Source: an uncultured Acidobacteriota bacterium
Lineage (GTDB): Bacteria > Acidobacteriota > Thermoanaerobaculia > Multivoradales > UBA5704
Direction of reading: 5' to 3'
Length of the DNA: 64,000 bases
Assembly (NCBI GenBank): GCA_963700145.1
Contig: OY969474.1
Span: forward strand, 4,644,916-4,708,915
Part shown: positions 1,197 to 9,954 of the stretch, in pieces
Position numbering within the stretch: the first letter of the stretch is position 1
Layout of the letters: every line of letters begins with the position of its first letter
Position numbers and translations under genes: made by a program
Notes under the pieces: model-generated
What the model was told of the DNA's origin: nothing
Seen by the model: the letters and a program-made list of their open reading frames with translations, nothing else
Databases searched by the model: none

Positions 1197-1942
1197 CCGC
1201 CTTCGCGCCGCGCGCCGCCGGCGCGCCGCTCGAGCTGCCGCCGGGCGAGGTCCACGTCTGGGCGGCGCGCCTCGACCCGCCGCCCGAGCGGGTGGCGGCG
1301 CTGCGCTCGACCCTCGCCGCCGACGAGCGGGCGCGCGCCGACCGCTTCCGCTTCGAGGTCCACCGCCGCCGCTTCGCCGTCGGCCGCGGCCTGCTGCGCG
1401 AGCTGCTCGGCGCCTACCTGGGCGCCTCCCCCGAGCGGCTCGCCTTCGTCTACGGCGAGCGCGGCAAGCCCGACCTCGCCCCCGCCACCGCGCGCCCCGG
1501 CGCGCCGCTCCACTTCAACCTCTCCCACTCGCACGAGCTGGCGGTCCTGGCGGTGACCCGCGAGCGCGAGATCGGTGCCGACGTCGAGCAGCTCAAGCCG
1601 ATGGACGACCTCGAGCGGATCGCCGAGCGCTTCTTCTCGGCGCCGGAGAACGCGGCGCTGCGCGGGCTGCCGGCGGCGGAGCGGCAGCGCGCCTTCTTCC
1701 GCTGCTGGACGCGGAAGGAGGCGTATCTCAAGGCCGTGGGGGTCGGGCTGGCGGCGCCGCTCGACTCGTTCGTGGTGACGCTGGGGCCGGAGGAGCCGCC
1801 GCGGATGCTGTCGCTCGAAGAGGACGCGGCGCGCGGCGAGCGCTGGAACCTCTGGCACCTCGAGCCGGAGGAGGGCTACTTCGGGGCGGTGGCGGTCGAG
1901 GCGGCGGGGCTCGTGCTCCGCGCCTGGAAGATGGTGACCTGA
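1193..1942 (+). CDS. Sfp-type 4'-phosphopantetheinyl transferase
   Basis: Motifs FNLSHSHELAVLA, GADVE and KEAYLKAVGVG are characteristic of Sfp/EntD-family PPTases. The TTG start overlaps the TEII stop. Confidence 0.85.
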   Translation: MTAFAPRAAGAPLELPPGEVHVWAARLDPPPERVAALRSTLAADERARADRFRFEVHRRRFAVGRGLLRELLGAYLGASPERLAFVYGERGKPDLAPATARPGAPLHFNLSHSHELAVLAVTREREIGADVEQLKPMDDLERIAERFFSAPENAALRGLPAAERQRAFFRCWTRKEAYLKAVGVGLAAPLDSFVVTLGPEEPPRMLSLEEDAARGERWNLWHLEPEEGYFGAVAVEAAGLVLRAWKMVT

Positions 1943-3771
1943 GGCCGGCCCAGCCAGGCGTCGAGGCGCGCGGTCTGCTCGAGCGTGGCGTTGGGGTCGA
2001 CCTCCAGCCGCCAGCGCTCGGGCGGCTTCTCGCCGAGCACCACGGCGAGCGGGATCAGCCGCTCGCGGCGGGCGACCAGGAGCTCGGTCTTGTCCCCCGG
2101 CCGGAACGCCTTGAGCCGCTCCTCGAGCTTCTCCGGCGGCACGCGGTAGCCGCCCAGGGCGAGGATCTCGTCCTCGACGTTGACGCCGGCGGCGTGCCCC
2201 GGGGTGCCGCGCTTGACCTCGGTGACCAGGAGGCGCCCGTCCCGCACCTCGACCTCCACCCCCAGCCACCCCGCCGGCTCCTCGGGCTCGGCCTCCTCCT
2301 TCTTCCACTTCGAGTCCTTGAACCGCAGGCCGTACCAGGCGAGGGCCTCGCGGTAGTCGAGCTCGGCGGGGCTGGACACCGCCTGTCCCAGCCACGCCTC
2401 CTGCGGCCCGCCCGCCACCTCTGAGATCAGCGCCAGGAACTCCTCGTGGCGGTAGCCGTGGGGCGCCCCCGCCCAGCGGGCCCAGGCGCGCCGCATGACG
2501 TCGTCGAGGCTGGCCTTCCCGGCCGAGACCATGCGGATGCGGGCGTCGAGCAGGAACCCGACGAGCGACCCCTTGAGGTAGTAGCTGACCGTGGCGTTAG
2601 GGGAGTTCTCGTCGCGGCGGTAGTGCTTGATCCAGGCGTCGAACGAGGCCTCGTCGAGCGGCTGCACCAGCCGGCCCGGCTGCGTCTGCAGCCGCTCGAT
2701 GTCGCGCGACAGGCGCTTGAGGTACTCGTCGCGCGTCGAGAGCCCGGCGCGGTGCACCAGGAGGTCGTCGTAGTAGGCGGTCAGCCCCTCGGCGATCCAC
2801 AGGCTCGGGGTGTAGACCTCGGTCTCGTAGTCGAACGGCGGCTCCAGCTCGCGCGGCCGCAGCCGCTTGACGTTCCAGGCATGGAAGAGCTCGTGGCTGG
2901 CGAGGGCCAGCCAGTCGAGCCACCCCTCGCGGGTGCGCGCCTTCCAGCGGCTGGTCATGACGGTGAACGACTCGGCGTGCTCGAGCCCGCCCGTGCCCTC
3001 GACGATCAGGTTGAGGAAGACGAAGCGGTCGTACGGGAGGTTGCCCCAGAAGGCCATCTGCTCGCGCACCAGCCGCTCCAGCTCGGAGGCCGAGCGGGGG
3101 CCGTCCCAGACCCCGCCCTCCCCCTCGTTGGCCAGCAGGTGGCTGCGCCCGCCGACCTCGAAGCGGTGGAGGGCGGGGTTGCCGAGGAGGATGGGGGCGT
3201 CGACGAGGGCGTCGTAGTCGTCCGCGCGGTAGCGGTTGGGGCCGCCGACCGGCTCGAGAGCGGTCACCACCGACGCCCACTGCGGCGCCGGCTCGATCTC
3301 GACGAAGTGGGTGCGCTGGCGGTCGGCGGCGACGGTCAAGAAGGTCGCGGCGCCGTTCAAGAAGGCGAAGTCGCGCTCGATGAAGTTGCCGCGCACCGTC
3401 AGCTCCCGCCCGTAGAGACGGTAGCGGACGGCGATCAGCGGCCGCCCGCCGGCGATCACCCGCCAGCGGCTCTTGGACGTCTTCTCGATCTCCAGCGGGA
3501 ACCCTTCGGGCGTCGCGGCGGCGATCTGCTCGACGTTGCGCTCGTACTCGCGGACCAGGTAGGAGCCCGGGGTCCACACCGGCATCATCAGCTCGAGGTG
3601 ATTGACGCGGCCGGTGGGGATCAGCGCCTCGACCTCGACGGTGTGCGACTCCGGGCTCGGGAAGCGGAGGGTGTAGGTGATCGGCTCGGGCAGGGCGAGC
3701 GCGTGCCCGGCGGCCGTCGAGGCGCCGGCGAGCAGGAGGAAGGCGGCGAGGGGGAGGAGGCTGCGGCGCAT
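1876..3771 (-). CDS. M61 family glycyl aminopeptidase with a C-terminal PDZ domain; secreted (signal peptide)
   Basis: Signal-peptide-like N-terminus MRRSLLPLAAFLLLAGASTAAG. HELFHAWN (HExxH) zinc motif with downstream Glu, as in M61 peptidases. The C-terminal region is PDZ-like. The ORF-track ORF extends upstream, but the first Met followed by a signal peptide is at 3771. Confidence 0.8.
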   Translation of the reverse strand: MRRSLLPLAAFLLLAGASTAAGHALALPEPITYTLRFPSPESHTVEVEALIPTGRVNHLELMMPVWTPGSYLVREYERNVEQIAAATPEGFPLEIEKTSKSRWRVIAGGRPLIAVRYRLYGRELTVRGNFIERDFAFLNGAATFLTVAADRQRTHFVEIEPAPQWASVVTALEPVGGPNRYRADDYDALVDAPILLGNPALHRFEVGGRSHLLANEGEGGVWDGPRSASELERLVREQMAFWGNLPYDRFVFLNLIVEGTGGLEHAESFTVMTSRWKARTREGWLDWLALASHELFHAWNVKRLRPRELEPPFDYETEVYTPSLWIAEGLTAYYDDLLVHRAGLSTRDEYLKRLSRDIERLQTQPGRLVQPLDEASFDAWIKHYRRDENSPNATVSYYLKGSLVGFLLDARIRMVSAGKASLDDVMRRAWARWAGAPHGYRHEEFLALISEVAGGPQEAWLGQAVSSPAELDYREALAWYGLRFKDSKWKKEEAEPEEPAGWLGVEVEVRDGRLLVTEVKRGTPGHAAGVNVEDEILALGGYRVPPEKLEERLKAFRPGDKTELLVARRERLIPLAVVLGEKPPERWRLEVDPNATLEQTARLDAWLGRPQVTIFQARSTSPAASTATAPK

Positions 3772-3955
3772 CCATCCGGGAGCGCGTGCCACCGCACGCG
3801 CGAGAGCGACGGAGTCAGCGGCAGACCATAGCAGATCGCCCGCAGACGCCCGGCACGTAGGCCGGGCGCTACGTAGCGGCGGGCCTACGTGCCCGCCGTG
3901 TTCGCGGCGGGCGCCTGCTGGCGCTCCGCCGCGGCTTTGGGGGAGACTCCGCGCC

Positions 3956-5125
3956 GTGATCGCCCTTGGCAGCGAGCGGGAGCTGGAGCGCGAGGCGCCC
4001 TCGCTGTGGGCGGCGCTCTCGCCGCTCGGGCGGCGGCTGGCGGGCGGTGAGGCCGAGGCGGGGGCGGAGGGCGGAGCGTCCACGGGCGCGCCGGCGCTCG
4101 GCCTGCCGGAGCTGCGCCGGCGCTGGCGCGGCTGGCAGCGGCGGGAGGGGCCGGCGGCGTCGTCCACGCTGCCAGCCACGACGGTCGGGCTCTCGCACGC
4201 CCTGTCGCTGGTCGCGGACCTCTTCGCCGGGCCGGGGCGCGCGGTGGCGGTGCCGCAGCCCTTCTGGGGCAACTACCGGCAGTGCTTCGAGATGCGCAAC
4301 GGCGCGCGCCTTCTGACCGCGCCGGCCTACCGCGGCGGCCGCTTCAACCCGCACGCCTGGAGCGAGGCCCTCGCCGAGGTGCCGGCGGGGGAGCCGGCGG
4401 TGGCGATCGTCAACCTCCCCTCGAACCCCGGCGGCTACTCGCCGGCGCCGGCGGAGCGCCAGGTCATGCTCGACGCGCTGGTCGCGGAGGCCGGCCGGCG
4501 GCCGCTCCTCGTGCTCTGCGACGACGCCTACGCCGGCCTGGTCTTCGAGCCGGGCATCCCGGCGGCGTCCCCGTTCTGGGACTTGGCGGGCGCCCATCCC
4601 AACCTCGTGGCGGTCAAGGTGGACGGCGCGACCAAGGAGTTCTCCTTCTTCGGCGGCCGGGTGGGGTTCCTCACCTTCGCGCTGGAGCCGGACGGGGAGG
4701 CGGCGCGGGCGCTGGAGGCGATGGGCGGGCGGCTGGCCGCAGCGACGATGGGCGCGCCGGCCGCGGCGCCGCAGGAGGTCCTGCTCGCCGCCCTGCGCCA
4801 AGAGGGGATCGAGCGCGAGATCGAGACGGTCCGCGCCCTCCTCGCCGGCCGCTACCGCGCCCTCCGCGACGCCCTCGCCGCCGCCGACCCGGCCCTGCTC
4901 CATGCCCTGCCCTTCAACTCCGGCTGCTTCGCCCTCGTCGAGCTACCCGGGGGTCTGAAGACCGACGTCCACGCCGTCCGCCGCCACCTCCTCGACCACT
5001 GGGACACCGGCGTCATCTCCCTGGAACCCCGCTACCTCCGGATCGCCCACTGCTCGGTGGACGAAGCGGCACTGCCGGAGCTGGTACGGCGGCTGGAAGG
5101 GGGAGTAGGGGAGCTCGTCGGGTAA
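3956..5125 (+). CDS. PLP-dependent aminotransferase (class I/II fold)
   Basis: SNPGGYSP (NPxGxx) motif, LVLCDDAYAGLVFE and KEFSFFGGRVGF (Lys-containing) regions typical of fold-type I aminotransferases. GTG start at 3956 is chosen because upstream sequence overlaps the convergent peptidase gene. Confidence 0.6.
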   Translation: MIALGSERELEREAPSLWAALSPLGRRLAGGEAEAGAEGGASTGAPALGLPELRRRWRGWQRREGPAASSTLPATTVGLSHALSLVADLFAGPGRAVAVPQPFWGNYRQCFEMRNGARLLTAPAYRGGRFNPHAWSEALAEVPAGEPAVAIVNLPSNPGGYSPAPAERQVMLDALVAEAGRRPLLVLCDDAYAGLVFEPGIPAASPFWDLAGAHPNLVAVKVDGATKEFSFFGGRVGFLTFALEPDGEAARALEAMGGRLAAATMGAPAAAPQEVLLAALRQEGIEREIETVRALLAGRYRALRDALAAADPALLHALPFNSGCFALVELPGGLKTDVHAVRRHLLDHWDTGVISLEPRYLRIAHCSVDEAALPELVRRLEGGVGELVG

Positions 5126-5129
5126 AGGC

Positions 5130-5566
5130 GGAGCCGGCCGGGGAGCCTTCCCCCGCGGCGCGGGCGACTTCCCGGAGCGTCCGGGAGCTTCCCCCGAGGC
5201 CGCGGAACAATGCCCGGACGCTCCGCGCAGAGTTCCCAACGGCTCGGAACAGTGCCCGGACGGCCCGGGAACTGTTCCCCACGACTTGGAACAACGCCCG
5301 GACGGCCCGGGCAGAGTTCCCAACGCCTCGGAACAATGCCCGGACGGTTCGGGAGCTGTTCCGGACGCTTCGGGAACAGTCCCCAAGGGCTTGGAACAAT
5401 GCCCGGACGCTCCGGGCATTGTTTCCAACGGTTTGGAACTCTTCCCGGTCCGTCCGGGCATTGTTCCCGGGGGCGGGGAACTCTTCCCGAACCGTCCGGG
5501 CATTGTTCCCGAGAGCTGGGAACTCTTCCCGGTCCGTCCGGGCATTGTTCCCGAGGGCTGGGAACT
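5130..5566. repeat. Array of about 10 imperfect palindromic units (about 34 bp, core GGAACARTGCCCGGACGGYCCGGGCAKWGTTCC). Orientation switches midway through the array.
   Basis: Recurrence of GGAACAATGCCCGGACG and its reverse complement CGTCCGGGCATTGTTCC every ~40 bp (units separated by ~8-10-bp linkers), seen directly in the sequence. The ORFs in this interval translate to repetitive low-complexity peptides and are not called. Confidence 0.8.
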
Positions 5567-5574
5567 CCTCCCGG

Positions 5575-6939
5575 GGATGTGTCCCGATTCTTGTGGAGAT
5601 TCGGCGTAACCCCCTGACTGTCGGGTTGACGTTAGCTCCTCACGCGGCCTGCGTCCAAATCGTGGCGAGGAAACGTTGCAGGTCTTGGTGGCCATTGACG
5701 CTGCGTAGGCGGATCTGGCCGCAGGCCACCAGTGCCCAGAGCAGGGTCAAGGCCGCCTCTTCGGTGGCGAAGCTGGCCTGGGTCTTGGTGCGGCGTCGAA
5801 ACTCGCGATGGAGGTTTTCCAGCGCGTTGGTCGAGCGTAGGGTCCTCCACAGCGAGCGGGGAAACTCGTAGAAGGTCAACAGCTCCTCTCCGGCCTCCTC
5901 GAGCGAGCGGGCGACAGCCGGACACAGGCGAGACCACTTGGCGAGGAAGGCCGCGTAGGCCTGATGGGCCGCCCCACCGTCGCGGGCCTCGACGATCGGG
6001 CGCCAGTCGCGCCGGAGCTCGCCGCGAGCATGGCGCGGGCAGTGCTCCAGCAGGTTTCGGAGCTTGTGCTGGGTGCAACGCTGCACGCGCACCCCCGGCC
6101 ACGCCGCCAGCGCCTTGCGCAAGCCAGCGTGGCCGTCGACGATGAGCAACTCGGGCGCCGCCAAGCCCCGCCGCTGCAGATCCTCGAGCAGCTCGCCCCA
6201 CAGCCGCGCCGCCTCGCTCGTGGCCAACCGTAACGCCACCAGGACCTTGCCGCCATCGGGGCGCACGCCCAGAGCGGCCAGCACCGGCACCGCCACCACC
6301 CGCCGGGCCAGCCGCACCTTGACGTGGAACCCGTCGAGAAACAGCAGCGCGTAACGCTCGCCCGCACAATCGCGCTCCCGCCAGGCCGCAAACCGCTCTT
6401 TGAGCCGCCCCACCACGCGCGAGGCCGCGCTCTTGGACAGGTGCTCTTCTCCCAGCAGCGGCGCCAGCGCCTTGCCGATCCGTCGGCTATTGGCCCCCGC
6501 CAGATAGCACGACAGGATCGCCGCGTCGATCTCCCGCACCCGCCGCGCGTAGCGCGGCACCAACGCGCTGGCGAACTCTTCCGTCGTGCCCTCCACTGTG
6601 GCCACCCGACCGCGCGGCACCCGCAGCGGCCGGGTCCCCGCCACCGTCGTCACCCGCCGTAGCGTGGCTCCGTTGCGGTAGCCGCGGCGCACCGCCGTCC
6701 GCTCGTAGGGCTGCGCACCCAGCGCCTCCTGAAGCTCCTGCTCTAGCACCAGCTCCACGGCCTCCAGAAGCCTCTGCTCGAGCAGCCGCCGGATGTCCTG
6801 GCGCAGCGGCACCACCTCCTGCTCTGACGTGCTAGCCTCCCACATGGCGTAACCCTCCTCCGCCGCCCACGCGACGGGATGTGCTTGACAGCTAGGAGGT
6901 TACGCCACTTTCTTTTTCCACAAGAATCGGGACGGATCC
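5575..6939 (-). mobile_element. IS256-family insertion sequence (about 1365 bp) with imperfect terminal inverted repeats and an 8-bp target-site duplication
   Basis: Terminal inverted repeats GGATGTGTCCCGATTCTTGTGG (left) and GGATCCGTCCCGATTCTTGTGG (right, reverse complement) match 20 of 22. Direct repeat CCTCCCGG at 5567-5574 and 6940-6947. IS256 characteristically makes 8-bp target duplications. Confidence 0.85.
5640..6845 (-). CDS. IS256-family (Mutator-like) transposase
   Basis: LFLDGFHVKVR and TNALENLHREFRRRTK motifs are IS256-family transposase signatures. About 400 aa. Confidence 0.9.
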   Translation of the reverse strand: MWEASTSEQEVVPLRQDIRRLLEQRLLEAVELVLEQELQEALGAQPYERTAVRRGYRNGATLRRVTTVAGTRPLRVPRGRVATVEGTTEEFASALVPRYARRVREIDAAILSCYLAGANSRRIGKALAPLLGEEHLSKSAASRVVGRLKERFAAWRERDCAGERYALLFLDGFHVKVRLARRVVAVPVLAALGVRPDGGKVLVALRLATSEAARLWGELLEDLQRRGLAAPELLIVDGHAGLRKALAAWPGVRVQRCTQHKLRNLLEHCPRHARGELRRDWRPIVEARDGGAAHQAYAAFLAKWSRLCPAVARSLEEAGEELLTFYEFPRSLWRTLRSTNALENLHREFRRRTKTQASFATEEAALTLLWALVACGQIRLRSVNGHQDLQRFLATIWTQAA

Positions 6940-6947
6940 CCTCCCGG

Positions 6948-7130
6948 TCCGTCCGGGCACTGTTGCTGAGGGCTGAGAACTCTGTCCGAACCGTCCGGGC
7001 AGAGTTTCCGGGCGCTTGGAGCTCCGACCCGACGCCGCGGGAGGAGTTTCTTGCGCCTCCCGACCCGACCCGGACGCTCCGGGAAGAACTCCCGGCGCCC
7101 CGAGCTGCCTCACTGGCTGCTCGAATGTGC
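6948..7130. repeat. Continuation of the palindromic repeat array on the far side of the IS insertion
   Basis: CCGTCCGGGCACTGTTGC and CCGTCCGGGCAGAGTTTCC units of the same family as 5130..5566. Confidence 0.7.
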
Positions 7131-7147: not shown

Positions 7148-7390
7148 ATGGCACGGCCAGCGATTCCCCCGCCCGGATTCGACGAGCTCACGGCCGACGA
7201 GAAGCTCGACTACATCCAGGCGCTCTGGGACAGTGTCGCCGCTCACCCGGACGAAGTCCCGCTGCCGGAGTGGCACCGGGAGGTGATCAGGGAGCGGTTG
7301 GCAGCCCATCGCCGCGGAGAAGGGGCGTCGCGGCCCTGGATCGAGGTTCGCGAGGAGCTGCTGTCGCGCCTTCGCTCCGCCGCGCGGTGA
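7148..7390 (+). CDS. Putative addiction-module antitoxin component (TIGR02574-like); no cognate toxin evident
   Basis: ADEKLDYIQALWDSVAAHPDEVPLPEWHREVIRERLAAHRRGE resembles the 'putative addiction module component' family (EEKLELVEALWDSL...LPEWQKEEL...). Confidence 0.55.
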   Translation: MARPAIPPPGFDELTADEKLDYIQALWDSVAAHPDEVPLPEWHREVIRERLAAHRRGEGASRPWIEVREELLSRLRSAAR

Positions 7391-7424
7391 AGCGCCTAAA
7401 CCTCTCTGGCGACGATCGGCGACT

Positions 7425-7619
7425 TCAATCCTCGAGGCCCTTGTAGAGCTCCGATTCGTCTCCCAGCTTGTTGTTTGTCGACTCGAAGAGCCGCGTGGTC
7501 GGCGGGCGGCGATCGCCGTAGAACCGCGAAGCCACCAGGCGAAGGCCCTGGCGAATCAGCTCGGAAGCGGAGTGGTAGGCCGCTCGGGCACGCTTCAAGG
7601 CCTTCACGTTCCTCTTCAC
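7425..7619 (-). CDS. Small hypothetical protein translationally coupled to the upstream nuclease-like gene
   Basis: Its GTG start overlaps the stop of the 7616..8719 gene (GTGA). No recognisable domain. Confidence 0.3.
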   Translation of the reverse strand: MKRNVKALKRARAAYHSASELIRQGLRLVASRFYGDRRPPTTRLFESTNNKLGDESELYKGLED

Positions 7620-8719
7620 TCCGCCTCTTCGGTGTACTCGTCAAGGACGGTGTCAGATAAGTGCGCGAGGTGCTTCTGCCCAGCAAGCTCGCGGAGGCTG
7701 TCGTAAGAGAGATACGTGCAGCTCTCGGCGAGCGGCCCTTTCTCCAGCAAGGAGAACACGGGGCGGCGAATCTCTTGGAAGACCTTTTCGCGCTTAACCG
7801 CGGGAGCGACGAGATGTAACTTGATGTCCATGTTTGGCTGAAGGGCCAGGAGGTCAGCCATGCGCAGGATGCCCGAATACACCGAGGTTGTGTGCTCCAC
7901 TTCAAAAGCCCGGACGATCGACCTCCCCCGCAGCCAGAGCACGTCAATCTGCTCGATCGTTCGGAGAGTGGTATCGTCATAGTTGAGCGGAAGGCGCTGA
8001 AGGAGGTCCTGACCATCGGTCTTCCACTCTTTGAGCACAGCCGCTCGGTCGGCGCGAGGAATCCAGATCGACAACCCCATGCTTGCACCGATCTGAGCAA
8101 TGAGCGCTTGGACTTTGGTCGACTCCCTCGTCTCGATTTCTGGTGCCTGTTGCGCGGCATCAATAACCCCGGAATCTTCGGGCACCGAGACTGTAACTAC
8201 CTTGTCAGGGCGGTTAACGGTATGGGTGGCTAGTTTCTTGATGTCCTGTTCATCGATTGGATAGGGCTTGAGCTCGGTGGATTGGAGCGTCAGCGTTTCG
8301 GCGAGGAACTTACCATCGCGGTCGTCGAGGCGCACCAAGCTGCTGCGGACCTTGCCGGTCCAGCCCGTAGAACCCTTCTCTAGATTTCGGGTGAAGGAGA
8401 GGCCGTTCCAAATTGCATCATCGTGGATTGGGATGGATTTGTCGATCTCCAGCCACACTCGTTCTCGAACGCGGAAGCGCAGGACGAACGGATCATCCTC
8501 GGGCAGGAAGAGCGATTTGTTATCAACGAAGGGCCCCTCAACAACCGCCAAGAGTCCAACCCACCGTGACAAGCGCGTGAGGTAGCACACGAACATATCA
8601 CCGGGTTTGACGCGCTCGGCCATTCCCTTATGGCGCAGGCGAAAGCCCGAAATGTCACGTGCTGAGCGCGTGAATGCGTCGTACGTCTCAGGAGAGCAAA
8701 TGTCGATGAAGTACGCCAT
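7616..8719 (-). CDS. Candidate modification-dependent restriction endonuclease: a PUA-like (EVE/ASCH-type) N-terminal domain fused to a C-terminal PD-(D/E)xK-like nuclease-like region
   Basis: N-terminus MAYFIDICSPETYDAFTR...KPGDMFVCYLT...WVGLLAVVEGPFVD fits the EVE/PUA pattern (YW/F..K..P..F....GD.V.FY......vG...V). C-terminus ...IDVLWLRGRSIVRAFEVEHTTS... is a possible D...ExE nuclease core. G+C is visibly lower than the flanks (by eye). Domain calls are inferred from motifs only. Confidence 0.45.
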   Translation of the reverse strand: MAYFIDICSPETYDAFTRSARDISGFRLRHKGMAERVKPGDMFVCYLTRLSRWVGLLAVVEGPFVDNKSLFLPEDDPFVLRFRVRERVWLEIDKSIPIHDDAIWNGLSFTRNLEKGSTGWTGKVRSSLVRLDDRDGKFLAETLTLQSTELKPYPIDEQDIKKLATHTVNRPDKVVTVSVPEDSGVIDAAQQAPEIETRESTKVQALIAQIGASMGLSIWIPRADRAAVLKEWKTDGQDLLQRLPLNYDDTTLRTIEQIDVLWLRGRSIVRAFEVEHTTSVYSGILRMADLLALQPNMDIKLHLVAPAVKREKVFQEIRRPVFSLLEKGPLAESCTYLSYDSLRELAGQKHLAHLSDTVLDEYTEEAE

Positions 8720-8787
8720 GTACGTTTACGCTCCCGCCTAGGTCAACCGCTCCTTGCGAGCATCTTATCCCCTGCCGGACTTCTGGC

Positions 8788-9954
8788 CTACGCTGGCTTG
8801 AGAAACCGAGCCCCCAAGCCACCGAAAACCACTCCGAAGCCGAGGAGCACCGCGGCCGGCAGGACAACCGCTTCGATCCCCCGCCCGAAGCTGATCAGGG
8901 CGTGGAAGGCGTCCATGGCCCAGGCGGTGGGGAAGACGTGGGCGGCGCGCCAGAGCCAGCGGGGCATGAGCTCGCTCGGCCACCAGCAGCCGCCGAGGGC
9001 GGCCATCACCATGCTGGCGATCCAGCCGACGGCGGAGGCCTGCTCCGGGGTGCGGAAGACGGCGCCGCAGAAGGTGGCGAGGCCGGCGACGCAGAAGGCG
9101 TAGGCGGCGAGGAGGAGGGCGAGGCCGCCGGGCGACCGCCCGAAGTCCAGGCCGAAGAGGAAGCGGCCGGCGGCGAGGAGCACGGCGACCTGGAGCGCCG
9201 CCAGGATCAGCCTCCCGGCGAGCTTCCCGAGGACGAGCGCCGGGCGCGAGAGCGGCAGGCTCACCTGCCGCCGCAGCATCCCCTCGCGCCGCTCGATCGT
9301 CAGGAAGACGCCGCCGTAGATGACGGTCATCATGAGGACCATCATCGTCAGGATGCCGGGGACGCTCTGCGCCATGCCGGCGGGGACCGGCCGGCCGTGC
9401 CCCGCCGTCGAGACGGCGACCGAGACCAACCGCGGCCGCGCCGCCAGGCGGGCCAGCTCCGCCTTGGCGGCGGCGGGGGTCGCCTGCGGCGGGAGCTTGC
9501 CCGCCGCGTTCATCTCGACCAGCAGGCCCAAGGTGCGGGTAACGGCGCGCATCAGGTTGACGTCGGCGGCACGCGAGAAGTCGCGATCGGCCTTCTCGTC
9601 GCGCTCGATGCGCAGCGTCTGCGGCTCGCCGGCGAGGACCTTGGCGGTGAAACCCGCGGGGATCGTGAGGGTGCGGACCTTCTCCTCGGCCGCCGCCGGC
9701 GCGGCGGGGGCGACCTCGCGCAGCGCGACGCTCTCGTCGGCGAGCTGCGCAACGAGAGCGCGGGCCAGGAAGCCGCCGTCGCGGTCCACGACGGTCAGGG
9801 TGACCTTCGGCGGCCCTGCATCGCCGCCGCCGCCGCCGACCTGGCCGAAGAACCACATCAGCGCCACCGGAAAGACGAGCATCCAGAGGAACGACGCCCG
9901 CTCCCGCATCGTCAGCCGGAGGTCGTTGAGCGCTAGGCGGAGAACGTTCCTCAC
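8788..9954 (-). CDS. ABC-2 type transporter permease
   Basis: Polytopic membrane protein with ABC-2 family architecture. A 4-bp overlap with the upstream permease gene suggests an operon. Confidence 0.75.
   Translation of the reverse strand: MRNVLRLALNDLRLTMRERASFLWMLVFPVALMWFFGQVGGGGGDAGPPKVTLTVVDRDGGFLARALVAQLADESVALREVAPAAPAAAEEKVRTLTIPAGFTAKVLAGEPQTLRIERDEKADRDFSRAADVNLMRAVTRTLGLLVEMNAAGKLPPQATPAAAKAELARLAARPRLVSVAVSTAGHGRPVPAGMAQSVPGILTMMVLMMTVIYGGVFLTIERREGMLRRQVSLPLSRPALVLGKLAGRLILAALQVAVLLAAGRFLFGLDFGRSPGGLALLLAAYAFCVAGLATFCGAVFRTPEQASAVGWIASMVMAALGGCWWPSELMPRWLWRAAHVFPTAWAMDAFHALISFGRGIEAVVLPAAVLLGFGVVFGGLGARFLKPA

Follow-up and report, generated by a model that had tools for sequence, protein, structure and literature searches.

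Our analysis indicates that a 367-aa gene in the window (the whole 64,000-nucleotide stretch of DNA analysed here) encodes a single-protein, modification-dependent (type IV) restriction endonuclease made of two modules, an EVE/PUA-like reader and an NmeDI_C-type nuclease. This is a predicted activity, to which we assign a probability of roughly 60%. That an EVE reader is fused to a nuclease in this protein had been proposed in a first-pass annotation of the sequence, and profile matches, predicted folds and conserved residues uphold the proposal as far as computation can show. We found no assayed member of this EVE-NmeDI_C family in the literature.

The fusion gene and its locus

The features discussed here are as follows, in coordinates of the window.
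5640..6845, IS256/Mutator-family transposase (Pfam PF00872, E 1e-86)
7148..7390, plus strand, orphan antitoxin-like Unstab_antitox gene, 80 aa (PF09720, E 7e-14; TIGR02574, E 4.5e-9)
7425..7619, minus strand, 64-aa ORF with a GTG start, overlapping the stop codon of the nuclease gene by GTGA
7425..8787, low-G+C islet from the composition profile, comprising the gene, the 68 nt that precede it and the region of the small ORF
7616..8719, minus strand, EVE-NmeDI_C fusion gene, 367 aa (ORF; stop codon 7616-7618)
8225..8719, minus strand, EVE/UPF0310-type PUA-like modified-base reader domain (residues 1-165)
8132..8224, minus strand, poorly conserved linker, predicted to be disordered (residues 166-196; pLDDT <50)
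7619..8131, minus strand, NmeDI_C-type PD-(D/E)xK nuclease domain (residues 197-367)
7943-7945, 7901-7903 and 7895-7897, minus strand, putative catalytic codons for D259, E273 and E275, respectively
8788..9954, ABC-2 permease ORF

The 367-aa ORF is present on the minus strand with the N- and C-terminal motifs that the first-pass annotation had quoted. Its G+C content, described there as lower than that of the flanks, is indeed 0.574, compared with 0.631 for the small ORF and 0.718 for the whole window; in the composition profile, values of 0.56-0.59 over 7600-8800 stand against 0.72-0.76 on either side. GC3 is 0.70 in the gene versus 0.95 in the ABC-2 gene alongside. Pfam matches and the ORF list also confirm the setting that had been reported, next to an antitoxin-like gene, an IS256 element and an ABC-2 gene. 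The Unstab_antitox gene converges on the nuclease gene, is not followed by a toxin ORF in the window and is arranged likewise in a sister contig (L006). Scanning for promoters and terminators revealed no convincing sigma-70 promoter upstream of the 367-aa gene; the sole promoter match lies inside the gene, and its occurrence is near chance expectation. For annotation, the window has here one real accessory defence-type gene, with the antitoxin gene and the IS element as mere neighbours.

The reader and nuclease modules

Sequence, profile and fold evidence agree that the N-terminus is an EVE/PUA-like reader, as had been suggested. The window protein matches NCBIfam PRK00809 (3e-6; residues 1-141 against positions 1-143 of the 146 in the model) and PH1033 (3e-4), and has no match in a local Pfam-A older than PF27126. 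A profile of the family matches PH1033 at 3.5e-13 and MJECL36 at 1.3e-12, and PF01878 is matched by 21 of 32 family members (best E 6e-7). The fold of the domain is a PUA-like pseudo-barrel, with UPF0310 as its closest fold neighbour, followed by the YTH m6A-RNA readers. Conserved residues of the domain are T12, D41, Y46, R52, the aromatics at positions 71 and 78, W120 and S127. Those that are candidates for lining a pocket are kept among the 32 members at the following frequencies: T12 in 30, Y46 in 32, aromatic-71 in 27, aromatic-78 in 30 and W120 in 29. Alignment alone places them on the cage of MJECL36 and the loop of VcaM4I. The columns of aromatic-71 and aromatic-78 align with F79 and F90, two of the three positions of the MJECL36 aromatic cage (PMC6112328), and T12 falls in the loop that corresponds to the one carrying the base-reading residues Q10/T11 in VcaM4I (PMC7897488). 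MJECL36 itself, although a close structural relative, showed no binding to m6A (PMC6112328), a point against our preferred reading. Because the structures nearest to the reader domain are those of UPF0310 and YTH proteins, a specificity for 5mC or 5hmC should not be assumed; judged from sequence, the modification read may be 5mC, 5hmC, 6mA or a hypermodified base.

The reader is followed by a linker of about 30 residues that is predicted to be flexible; mean pairwise identity is 0.18 over residues 151-196, a stretch that includes it.

At the C-terminus, the D...ExE nuclease core that the first-pass annotation had considered possible is well supported, with D259 present in all 32 diverse members and E273 and E275 each in 31. 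Q204, R286 and D289 of the domain are invariant. In the predicted structure, D259 starts a strand (260-264), E273-x-E275 ends another (267-274) and a helix (280-293) follows; in this model the three residues occupy the canonical PD...(D/E)xK positions, and both the core and the placement of the acidic residues are those of a PD-(D/E)xK restriction-endonuclease fold. The third catalytic position is E and not K, which we take to be the BamHI-type variant. Fold neighbours of the domain are DNA endonucleases, and NucS is among the matches. Mrr_cat, which had been put forward as a candidate family, does not hold, as the domain is specifically NmeDI_C: a precomputed PF27126 (NmeDI_C) tag is carried by all of the best 120 of 5,535 homologues, including one that is 100% identical (P0001). 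The PADLOC REase_II model, whose 351 positions equal the length of NmeDI, matches residues 197-327 with an E value of 1e-13, and matches other members of the family at 1e-6 to 1e-19. Only positions ~175-323 of this model are covered, and its N-terminal half is unmatched.

The nuclease domain also occurs in other combinations. It is found at 61% identity on an unrelated N-terminus (P0180), is joined to a homing-endonuclease HTH repeat (P0147) and is seen with EVE across longer linkers; an NCBIfam scan of these variant-architecture proteins gave no match. NmeDI is a tetramer that cuts at a distance (12/7) to either side of the sequence it recognises (PMC2095814), properties that fit a detachable cleavage module. 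The C-terminal domain of NmeDI is probably the cleavage module that enables this 12/7 cutting on both sides.

We propose that, when DNA enters the cell, the EVE domain would flip a modified base out of it and into a conserved pocket, predicted to be formed by T12, Y46, the aromatics at 71 and 78, and W120. Binding of the base would tether the nuclease domain with its putative BamHI-like D259/E273/E275 metal site, which may then oligomerise and make a double-strand cut a little way from the modified base. Host DNA that does not carry the modification would be spared, and so a methyltransferase would be unnecessary.

Distribution, selection and alternative readings

The 5,535 homologues of the 367-aa protein include a best 120 that are all close to 367 aa long, and the EVE-NmeDI_C family comprises 2,372 clusters at 50% identity. 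Among about 185,000 species representatives, carriers were found in at least 598 species genomes from more than 12 phyla, including Acidobacteriota, Nitrospirota, Chloroflexota, Planctomycetota, Proteobacteria, Bacteroidota and Firmicutes, and in an archaeon. The distribution is patchy, the genomic position varies, and in 52 of 80 loci the G+C content of the gene is below that of its flanks. Similarity to non-syntenic homologues at the DNA level breaks off no more than 15 nt from either end of the ORF; the gene moves horizontally as a bare ORF. A conserved mobile cassette, with flanking repeats or shared UTRs, was also considered and is ruled out by the same boundaries. PHROGs returned nothing for the protein. 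A tblastn search of phage genomes gave no match to it and thus no evidence of a phage-borne gene, and a tblastn search of plasmids found no full-length homologue, only distant matches to the C-terminal domain (24-37% identity).

No neighbouring gene family recurs across 85 loci, and no methyltransferase is conserved beside the gene in these loci or adjacent to it in the window. Methyltransferases lie near only a few loci, and their types differ. At these loci the gene has no cognate methyltransferase, as would be expected of a type IV enzyme; it is not an NmeDI-type type II restriction-modification system, which has both halves of the restriction endonuclease and an adjacent or overlapping C5 methyltransferase. 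One homologue lies within a defence island (L001), others are in a small integrase/Rep/TA element (L003-L005), and another is near genes for Vsr, a C5 methyltransferase and SNF2 (L092). Many loci have ordinary metabolic neighbours, which weighs against our preferred reading. In one of the loci mentioned a C5 methyltransferase is found 5 kb away, which would sit uneasily with a general dependence on 5mC. According to the first-pass annotation, its proposal would fail if no such folds were detected or if the homologues were core housekeeping genes of native G+C. Neither is the case: both folds were found, and the gene is solitary, low in G+C and patchily distributed, with no conserved methyltransferase.

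The gene is under strong purifying selection. Compared with its counterparts in the sister contigs L006 and L007, dN/dS is 0.10 and 0.07, respectively, and substitutions at the three codon positions number 11/5/43 and 5/3/38. In comparisons with other phyla, saturation is reached at synonymous sites, while dN is 0.11-0.17. Identity across phyla is 78-84% (about 80%). Such high conservation is unusual for a defence gene and counts against our preferred reading; defence has been associated with fast-evolving EVE domains (Bell et al. 2020, PMC7641849).

This conservation, together with the constant length of 367 aa, would suit a DNA-repair or genome-maintenance nuclease that senses a damaged or aberrant host base and incises nearby, as NucS/EndoMS or Vsr do. 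The presence of NucS among the fold matches, of a UvrA-like paralogue adjoining the gene in one locus (L090) and of Vsr nearby in another (L092) points in the same direction. For such a nuclease, however, vertical inheritance in a conserved operon would be expected, whereas the gene is sporadic among the species representatives, varies in position, has a G+C content below that of its flanks and moves as a bare ORF, and we regard a repair function as quite improbable. An invariant cellular target, which strong conservation would also suit, could equally be RNA. The protein would then be an RNA-directed or abortive-infection effector that reads a modified base in tRNA, rRNA or a phage transcript and acts as an infection-triggered toxin nuclease. 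After UPF0310, the nearest structures are indeed those of YTH m6A-RNA readers, EVE and PUA domains were initially seen as RNA binders (PMC6765204), and TA modules adjoin the gene in the window and in several other loci. Nevertheless, the gene has no conserved antitoxin or immunity neighbour, the nuclease domain is homologous to that of a dsDNA restriction enzyme, NmeDI, with DNA endonucleases as fold neighbours, and EVE domains fused to nucleases, where assayed, read DNA (PMC7897488); an RNA target is in our judgement improbable. It is very unlikely that the gene is an orphan or decayed type II restriction enzyme, inactive or only DNA binding after loss of its methyltransferase. The matching PADLOC model is that of a type II enzyme, and the distant plasmid homologues, likewise solitary, are annotated "type II restriction endonuclease", but the NmeDI-type model is matched in its C-terminal half only, with EVE in place of the N-terminal half. 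Moreover, invariant or nearly invariant putative catalytic residues, a dN/dS far below 1 and thousands of full-length copies with the same architecture are unlike a decaying gene.

The 64-aa ORF raises the question of a two-gene operon, in which it would be coupled to the nuclease gene in translation and serve it as a regulator, immunity or antitoxin partner. The GTGA overlap reported in the first-pass annotation exists in the window, the ORF has weak ParD/RHH-like similarity (TIGR02606, E 0.0015; PF03693, E 0.02) and it is still open in L006 and L007, its two closest relatives. The translational coupling proposed along with the overlap does not stand. In these two syntenic contigs (~93% DNA identity) a 2-nt indel removes the overlap, and the only start kept is the second GTG, giving 60 aa; the GTGA coupling is an accident of one sequence. 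Substitutions in the ORF are spread 5/3/3 over codon positions, without an excess at the third, and dN/dS is 0.95. No counterpart is found beside any of the ~85 other homologues, and the N-terminal beta-strand of the RHH fold is missing, as read from the sequence. This is not the conserved, constrained partner of a ParD-type or other type II TA system, and an operon of this kind is extremely unlikely. Probably the ORF is left over from a ParD-type RHH antitoxin gene and is under no constraint. Since only the two closest relatives share it, and since it has lost the overlap there and evolves at a dN/dS of 0.95, we judge that it is not part of the system and should not be annotated as a partner.

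Relation to known systems

If the type IV reading is true, the gene is a one-protein barrier against phages or plasmids with modified DNA. Characterising one member would test the predicted EVE-PD(D/E)xK type IV class, would reveal the role of the NmeDI C-terminal domain and would probably indicate the ligand for UPF0310 proteins of solved structure (PH1033 and MJECL36). A more specific scenario, which we offer as speculative and rather doubtful, is that this slow-evolving, abundant family, mostly of soil and sediment bacteria, joins a UPF0310/YTH-like reader to an NmeDI two-sided cutter, excising short fragments of fixed length in an MspJI-like manner around a base that is perhaps not 5mC or 5hmC but, for instance, 6mA or a hypermodified one. 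Were this so, it would be the first functional assignment for UPF0310 proteins and might provide a new reagent to map DNA modifications. Enzymes that depend on a modification and cut at a fixed distance from it also serve well in epigenome mapping.

The type IV restriction endonuclease predicted here resembles several known systems in part. Among these are the EVE-PD(D/E)XK fusions for which a type IV restriction activity has been predicted (Bell, Wolf & Koonin 2020, PMC7641849) and which share an EVE domain, a PD-(D/E)xK core and the stand-alone, defence-associated logic without a methyltransferase. That class is a bioinformatic, predicted grouping, and the nuclease here is specifically of the NmeDI_C type; defence EVE domains are reported in that paper to evolve fast, whereas the EVE domain here is unusually well conserved. 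EVE-HNH enzymes are proven type IV enzymes (PMC6765204, PMC7897488). Those of the VcaM4I/TspA15I family likewise are single proteins without a methyltransferase, with an N-terminal EVE domain, a linker and a C-terminal nuclease, and the Thr in the base-reading loop is kept. Their nuclease, however, is HNH instead of PD-(D/E)xK (NmeDI_C), their linker is helical where ours is predicted to be disordered, and their EVE domains are only ~11% identical to that of the window protein. The UPF0310 proteins PH1033 and MJECL36 (PDB 1wmm and 2p5d) are stand-alone archaeal proteins of ~145 aa that lack a nuclease.

R.NmeDI of Neisseria meningitidis has a homologous C-terminal domain (PADLOC positions ~176-323 of 351), but it has its own N-terminal half, an unmodified RCCGGY site and a paired M.NmeDI, in place of which the protein here has EVE and no linked methyltransferase. 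The END nucleases (bioRxiv 10.1101/2025.03.31.646159) also combine a sensor of non-canonical bases with a type IIS-like cleavage domain, lack a methyltransferase and are built from recombining modules. Their domains, a PLD nuclease and an inactive EndoIII sensor, are unrelated to those of EVE-NmeDI_C. MspJI-type enzymes follow the same design, a modified-base sensor fused to a type IIS-like cleavage domain without a methyltransferase. The EVE-PD-(D/E)xK architecture has thus already been predicted as a class, and the EVE-NmeDI_C family is a new predicted member of it.

The low-G+C islet and its neighbours

The 367-aa ORF of the first-pass annotation was recovered on the minus strand and carries the exact peptides quoted there. 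It does lie in a low-G+C islet, with a G+C of 0.56-0.59 over approximately 7600-8800 and of 0.72-0.76 on either side in the composition profile of the window. The G+C of the gene is 0.574 versus 0.718 for the entire window, and its GC3 is 0.70 versus 0.95 for the adjoining ABC-2 permease gene. The IS, orphan antitoxin and ABC-2 neighbours were likewise identified, through Pfam matches and a permease ORF.

Features of the locus (window coordinates)
5640..6845, IS256/Mutator-family transposase (PF00872, E 1e-86)
7148..7390, plus strand, Unstab_antitox gene (PF09720, E 7e-14; real start, ATG at 7148), with no toxin ORF downstream
7425..7619, minus strand, 64-aa small ORF, GTG start, GTGA overlap with the stop codon of the large gene
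7616..8719, minus strand, 367-aa nuclease gene, ATG start (six-frame ORF list)
8788..9954, ABC-2-type permease ORF

As the ORF, the G+C and the neighbours were all recovered, the sequence-level observation is real, the status of the small ORF excepted. This ORF had been proposed to be translationally coupled to the large gene. The GTGA overlap is present in the window, but the role of coupled partner does not hold. In L006 and L007, the nearest syntenic contigs, a 2-nt indel just past the stop codon of the large gene abolishes the overlap, and the only start conserved in all three sequences is the second GTG, giving a 60-aa product. The small ORF shows 11 differences between the window and L006/L007, distributed 5/3/3 by codon position (dN/dS 0.95), whereas over the same divergence those of the large gene are distributed 11/5/43 (L006) and 5/3/38 (L007). 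The only tblastn matches to it were in L006 and L007; none of the other homologues has it alongside. Because the overlap is lost, the dN/dS is 0.95 and the ORF is absent beside other homologues, we rejected it as a component of the nuclease system; it is unconstrained. Its only similarities are weak ParD/RHH matches centred on 'YHSASELIRQGLRL' (TIGR02606, E 0.0015; PF03693, E 0.02), and in our reading the N-terminal strand of a typical RHH fold seems to be missing from the sequence. The ORF is probably what is left of a ParD-type antitoxin gene. The spot, with this ORF, the orphan Unstab_antitox gene and the IS element, is a small accessory-gene graveyard.

Several further observations concern this region. 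Compared with the window copy, the Unstab_antitox gene of L006 (2080-2340, minus strand) is frameshifted at its C-terminus, suggesting decay of the gene in that lineage. The intergenic stretch between the ABC-2 and nuclease genes (8720-8787) is approximately 70 nt longer in L006 (681-749) and L007 (690-763); this indel is located at the islet's upstream edge and could represent the old insertion junction. The IS element (5573-6941) has terminal inverted repeats of 25 nt at its boundaries (5573-5597 and 6917-6941, 92% complementary). A 42-nt repeat array with a 21-nt sub-period and about 10 copies is present at 5130-5591 and 6944-7090. It is built of palindromic units, such as GGAACAATGCCCGGACG.CCGGGCATTGTTCC, and forms long imperfect hairpins with arms of up to 172 nt (77% complementary). 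As the array continues on both sides of the IS, the latter appears to have inserted into it. The array looks REP- or MITE-like and not CRISPR-like, because it has no spacers, and a similar repeat occurs at the end of L006 (2400-2627). Upstream of the array, in a stretch of 75-80% G+C, long ORFs on opposite strands overlap (1876-4272, minus; 3677-5125, plus), a pattern typical of spurious antisense ORFs in high-G+C DNA.

Predicted reader and nuclease domains

The proposal of an EVE/PUA-like N-terminus is supported by profile matches and fold searches in agreement. The window protein alone matches NCBIfam PRK00809 over the full domain length (E 3e-6) and PH1033/UPF0310, a protein with a crystal structure (E 3e-4). 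A profile of 32 full-length relatives (alignment A2; identity to the window protein down to 30%) matches PH1033 (3.5e-13) and MJECL36 (1.3e-12), and YTH proteins weakly; 21 of the 32 members individually match Pfam EVE. An AlphaFold2 model built on A2 is confident (mean pLDDT 86.3) and consists of two folded domains, residues 1-165 and 197-367, with a linker of pLDDT below 50 between them. Fold searches with the modelled N-domain retrieved PH1033 (score 16.6), YTH domains (12-13), the EVE-HNH restriction enzyme VcaM4I (11.1), the EVE protein Rpa0253 (10.7), THYN1 bound to 5mC DNA (10.5) and ASCH (10.2), by which the domain is firmly predicted to belong to the EVE/YTH branch of the PUA-like superfamily. 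T12, conserved in 30/32 members, is located by alignment in the loop equivalent to that of Q10/T11, the base-reading residues of VcaM4I (PMC7897488). Positions 71 and 78, aromatic in 27/32 and 30/32 members respectively, correspond in the alignment to F79 and F90 in the aromatic cage of MJECL36 (PMC6112328). All members have D41, Y46 and S127, and 29/32 have W120. The family-conserved residues appear to cluster at the flipped-base site of the relatives, forming a candidate pocket.

In the C-terminal domain, residues 197-327 match the PADLOC type II REase model PDLC03534 (E 1e-13), the match covering only model positions 175-312 of 351; every family member tested gave the same partial match. 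Pfam now includes an NmeDI_C family, and its precomputed tag (PF27126) is found on all of the best 120 of 5,535 matches. Fold searches retrieved NgoMIV (8.4), the BspD6I small subunit (8.3), N.BspD6I (7.7), FokI and SdaI (both 7.4), BstEII (7.3), BsaWI (6.9), NucS (6.6) and EcoT38I (6.5); these are modest scores, with Rossmann-like folds scattered among the matches. The predicted order of helix 199-213, strand 217-219, strands 260-264 and 267-274, helix 280-293 and strand 300-305 is, in the model, that of a PD-(D/E)xK core. The D...ExE motif pointed out at first pass was confirmed: D259 (32/32) immediately precedes core strand two, and core strand three ends with E273-x-E275 (31/32 each). Glu replacing the canonical Lys is the arrangement of BamHI (D94/E111/E113).

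Distribution, constraint and modularity of the family

A word-indexed search gave the 5,535 matches, the best 120 of which are all approximately 367 aa, 77-100% identical and from different phyla. An exhaustive search of 50%-identity representatives gave 2,372 clusters at E <=1e-3, 354 of them at E <=1e-30, and a one-genome-per-species scan gave at least 598 carriers. Those listed include members of the Nitrospirota, Acidobacteriota, Beta- and Deltaproteobacteria, Planctomycetota, Chloroflexota, Gemmatimonadota, Cyanobacteria, Bacteroidota, Firmicutes, Sumerlaeota and Latescibacterota, and one Hadesarchaea MAG. None of the phage genomes searched carried the nuclease gene.

Across 85 loci, no recurrent neighbour gene family was found; the largest neighbour cluster, a generic ABC ATPase, is present at 6 loci. 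Homologues are found in a defence island (L001, with a KAP NTPase, an HNH protein, an MmeI-like type IIG enzyme and an SNF2-PLD protein), in a small element of approximately 4.5 kb (L003 to L005, with Rep, MazE-PIN, excisionase-like HTH and integrase genes), near a Gp49/HTH TA pair (L002), near Vsr, a C5 methyltransferase and an SNF2 helicase (L092), near an SNase and a large helicase (L096), and among ordinary metabolic genes (L090, L094). In L003 (5971-11089), from a Nitrospirota lineage, the homologue is carried as cargo by a compact element that also codes for Rep (REP_ORF2-G2P/RepSA), MazE-PIN, a NikA-like RHH protein, an HTH_17 excisionase-like protein and a tyrosine integrase. This gene order is repeated on the short metagenome contigs L004 and L005 (approximately 4.4-4.6 kb), and so may represent a small integrative or mobilisable element.

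In 52 of 80 loci, the gene has a G+C more than 3 points lower than that of its flanks; it is higher in only 2. Between the window gene and its non-syntenic homologues, similarity at the DNA level stops no more than 15 nt from the ORF ends. The mobile unit is the bare gene. L006 and L007, both metagenome contigs, share with the window the ABC-2 permease, the gene and the antitoxin, in that order, at approximately 93% DNA identity, and the gene was therefore acquired before their divergence. The dN/dS of the large gene is 0.096 (L006) and 0.070 (L007). In comparisons with homologues of other phyla, third-position identity reaches only 0.38-0.45, and synonymous sites are thus saturated, with dN at 0.11-0.17. 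This indicates strong, long-term purifying selection, and the high cross-phylum identity is a matter of constraint, not of very recent transfer.

In pairwise comparisons within A2, mean identity is 0.48 in the nuclease domain and 0.35 in the EVE domain, falling to 0.18 over residues 151-196, a segment that contains the linker. P0180, whose nuclease domain is 61% identical to that of the window protein, has an N-terminus with no profile-level similarity to the family EVE domain; P0147 bears a homing-endonuclease HTH repeat, and other proteins carry EVE on longer linkers. Distant plasmid homologues annotated as 'type II restriction endonuclease' are also solitary. Two of these, distant relatives of the nuclease domain on a Caballeronia plasmid (L088, 3302-4561; 419 aa) and an Enterococcus plasmid (L089, 3530-4813; 427 aa), stand alone amid copper and heavy-metal resistance genes, and such a gene is present on approximately 64 Enterococcus plasmids. 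The N-terminal domains of these two have no NCBIfam match, and PADLOC gave nothing beyond the nuclease model.

Proposed mode of action and relation to known systems

We consider it probable, at roughly 60%, that the window protein is a modification-dependent DNA endonuclease. The computed features are two folds, a conserved acidic triad, conserved pocket positions, the absence of a partner gene, mobility and selective constraint. The earlier interpretation as a type IV EVE-nuclease thus stands for the domains and for genomic behaviour, and the activity is predicted. The EVE domain would flip and bind a modified base of incoming DNA, as seen crystallographically for VcaM4I (PMC7897488). The flexible linker would allow the NmeDI-type domain to contact the duplex at a short distance from that base, association of two or more nuclease domains would produce a double-strand break, and host DNA without the modification would be spared. 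R.NmeDI, a 351-aa enzyme whose gene adjoins that of its C5 methyltransferase, is a tetramer that recognises RCCGGY, needs two sites and cleaves on both sides of its site, at a distance of 12/7 nt (PMC2095814). By analogy, this behaviour fits a separable cleavage module and suggests that the window protein may cut at a fixed distance. In structure, the reader domain is closer to UPF0310 and to YTH (6mA readers) than to EVE proteins that bind 5mC/5hmC; MJECL36 does not bind m6A (PMC6112328), and in one carrier a C5 methyltransferase is encoded 5 kb from the homologue.

An RNA-directed or abortive-infection effector is an unlikely reading of the same protein. A repair-type nuclease, in favour of which the unusual conservation of the family can be cited, is slightly less likely again. 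We regard a decayed orphan type II enzyme as highly improbable, and least credible is a two-gene version that includes the rejected small ORF.

A modification-dependent endonuclease of this kind falls in the predicted EVE-PD(D/E)XK class, catalogued as putative type IV enzymes by Bell, Wolf and Koonin (PMC7641849). The concept has been proven for EVE-HNH enzymes by Lutz et al. (PMC6765204) and Pastor et al. (PMC7897488). END nucleases are a proven case of the same modular logic, although their domains are unrelated (bioRxiv 10.1101/2025.03.31.646159). In the literature searched, we found EVE-NmeDI_C proteins neither mentioned nor assayed. The family is mildly unusual in its abundance, constant length and slow evolution, and is a good candidate for biochemical characterisation, although it would not surprise a specialist. 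As the EVE-PD(D/E)XK class, the EVE-HNH proof and the NmeDI_C family are already known, the window protein does not represent a new kind of system.
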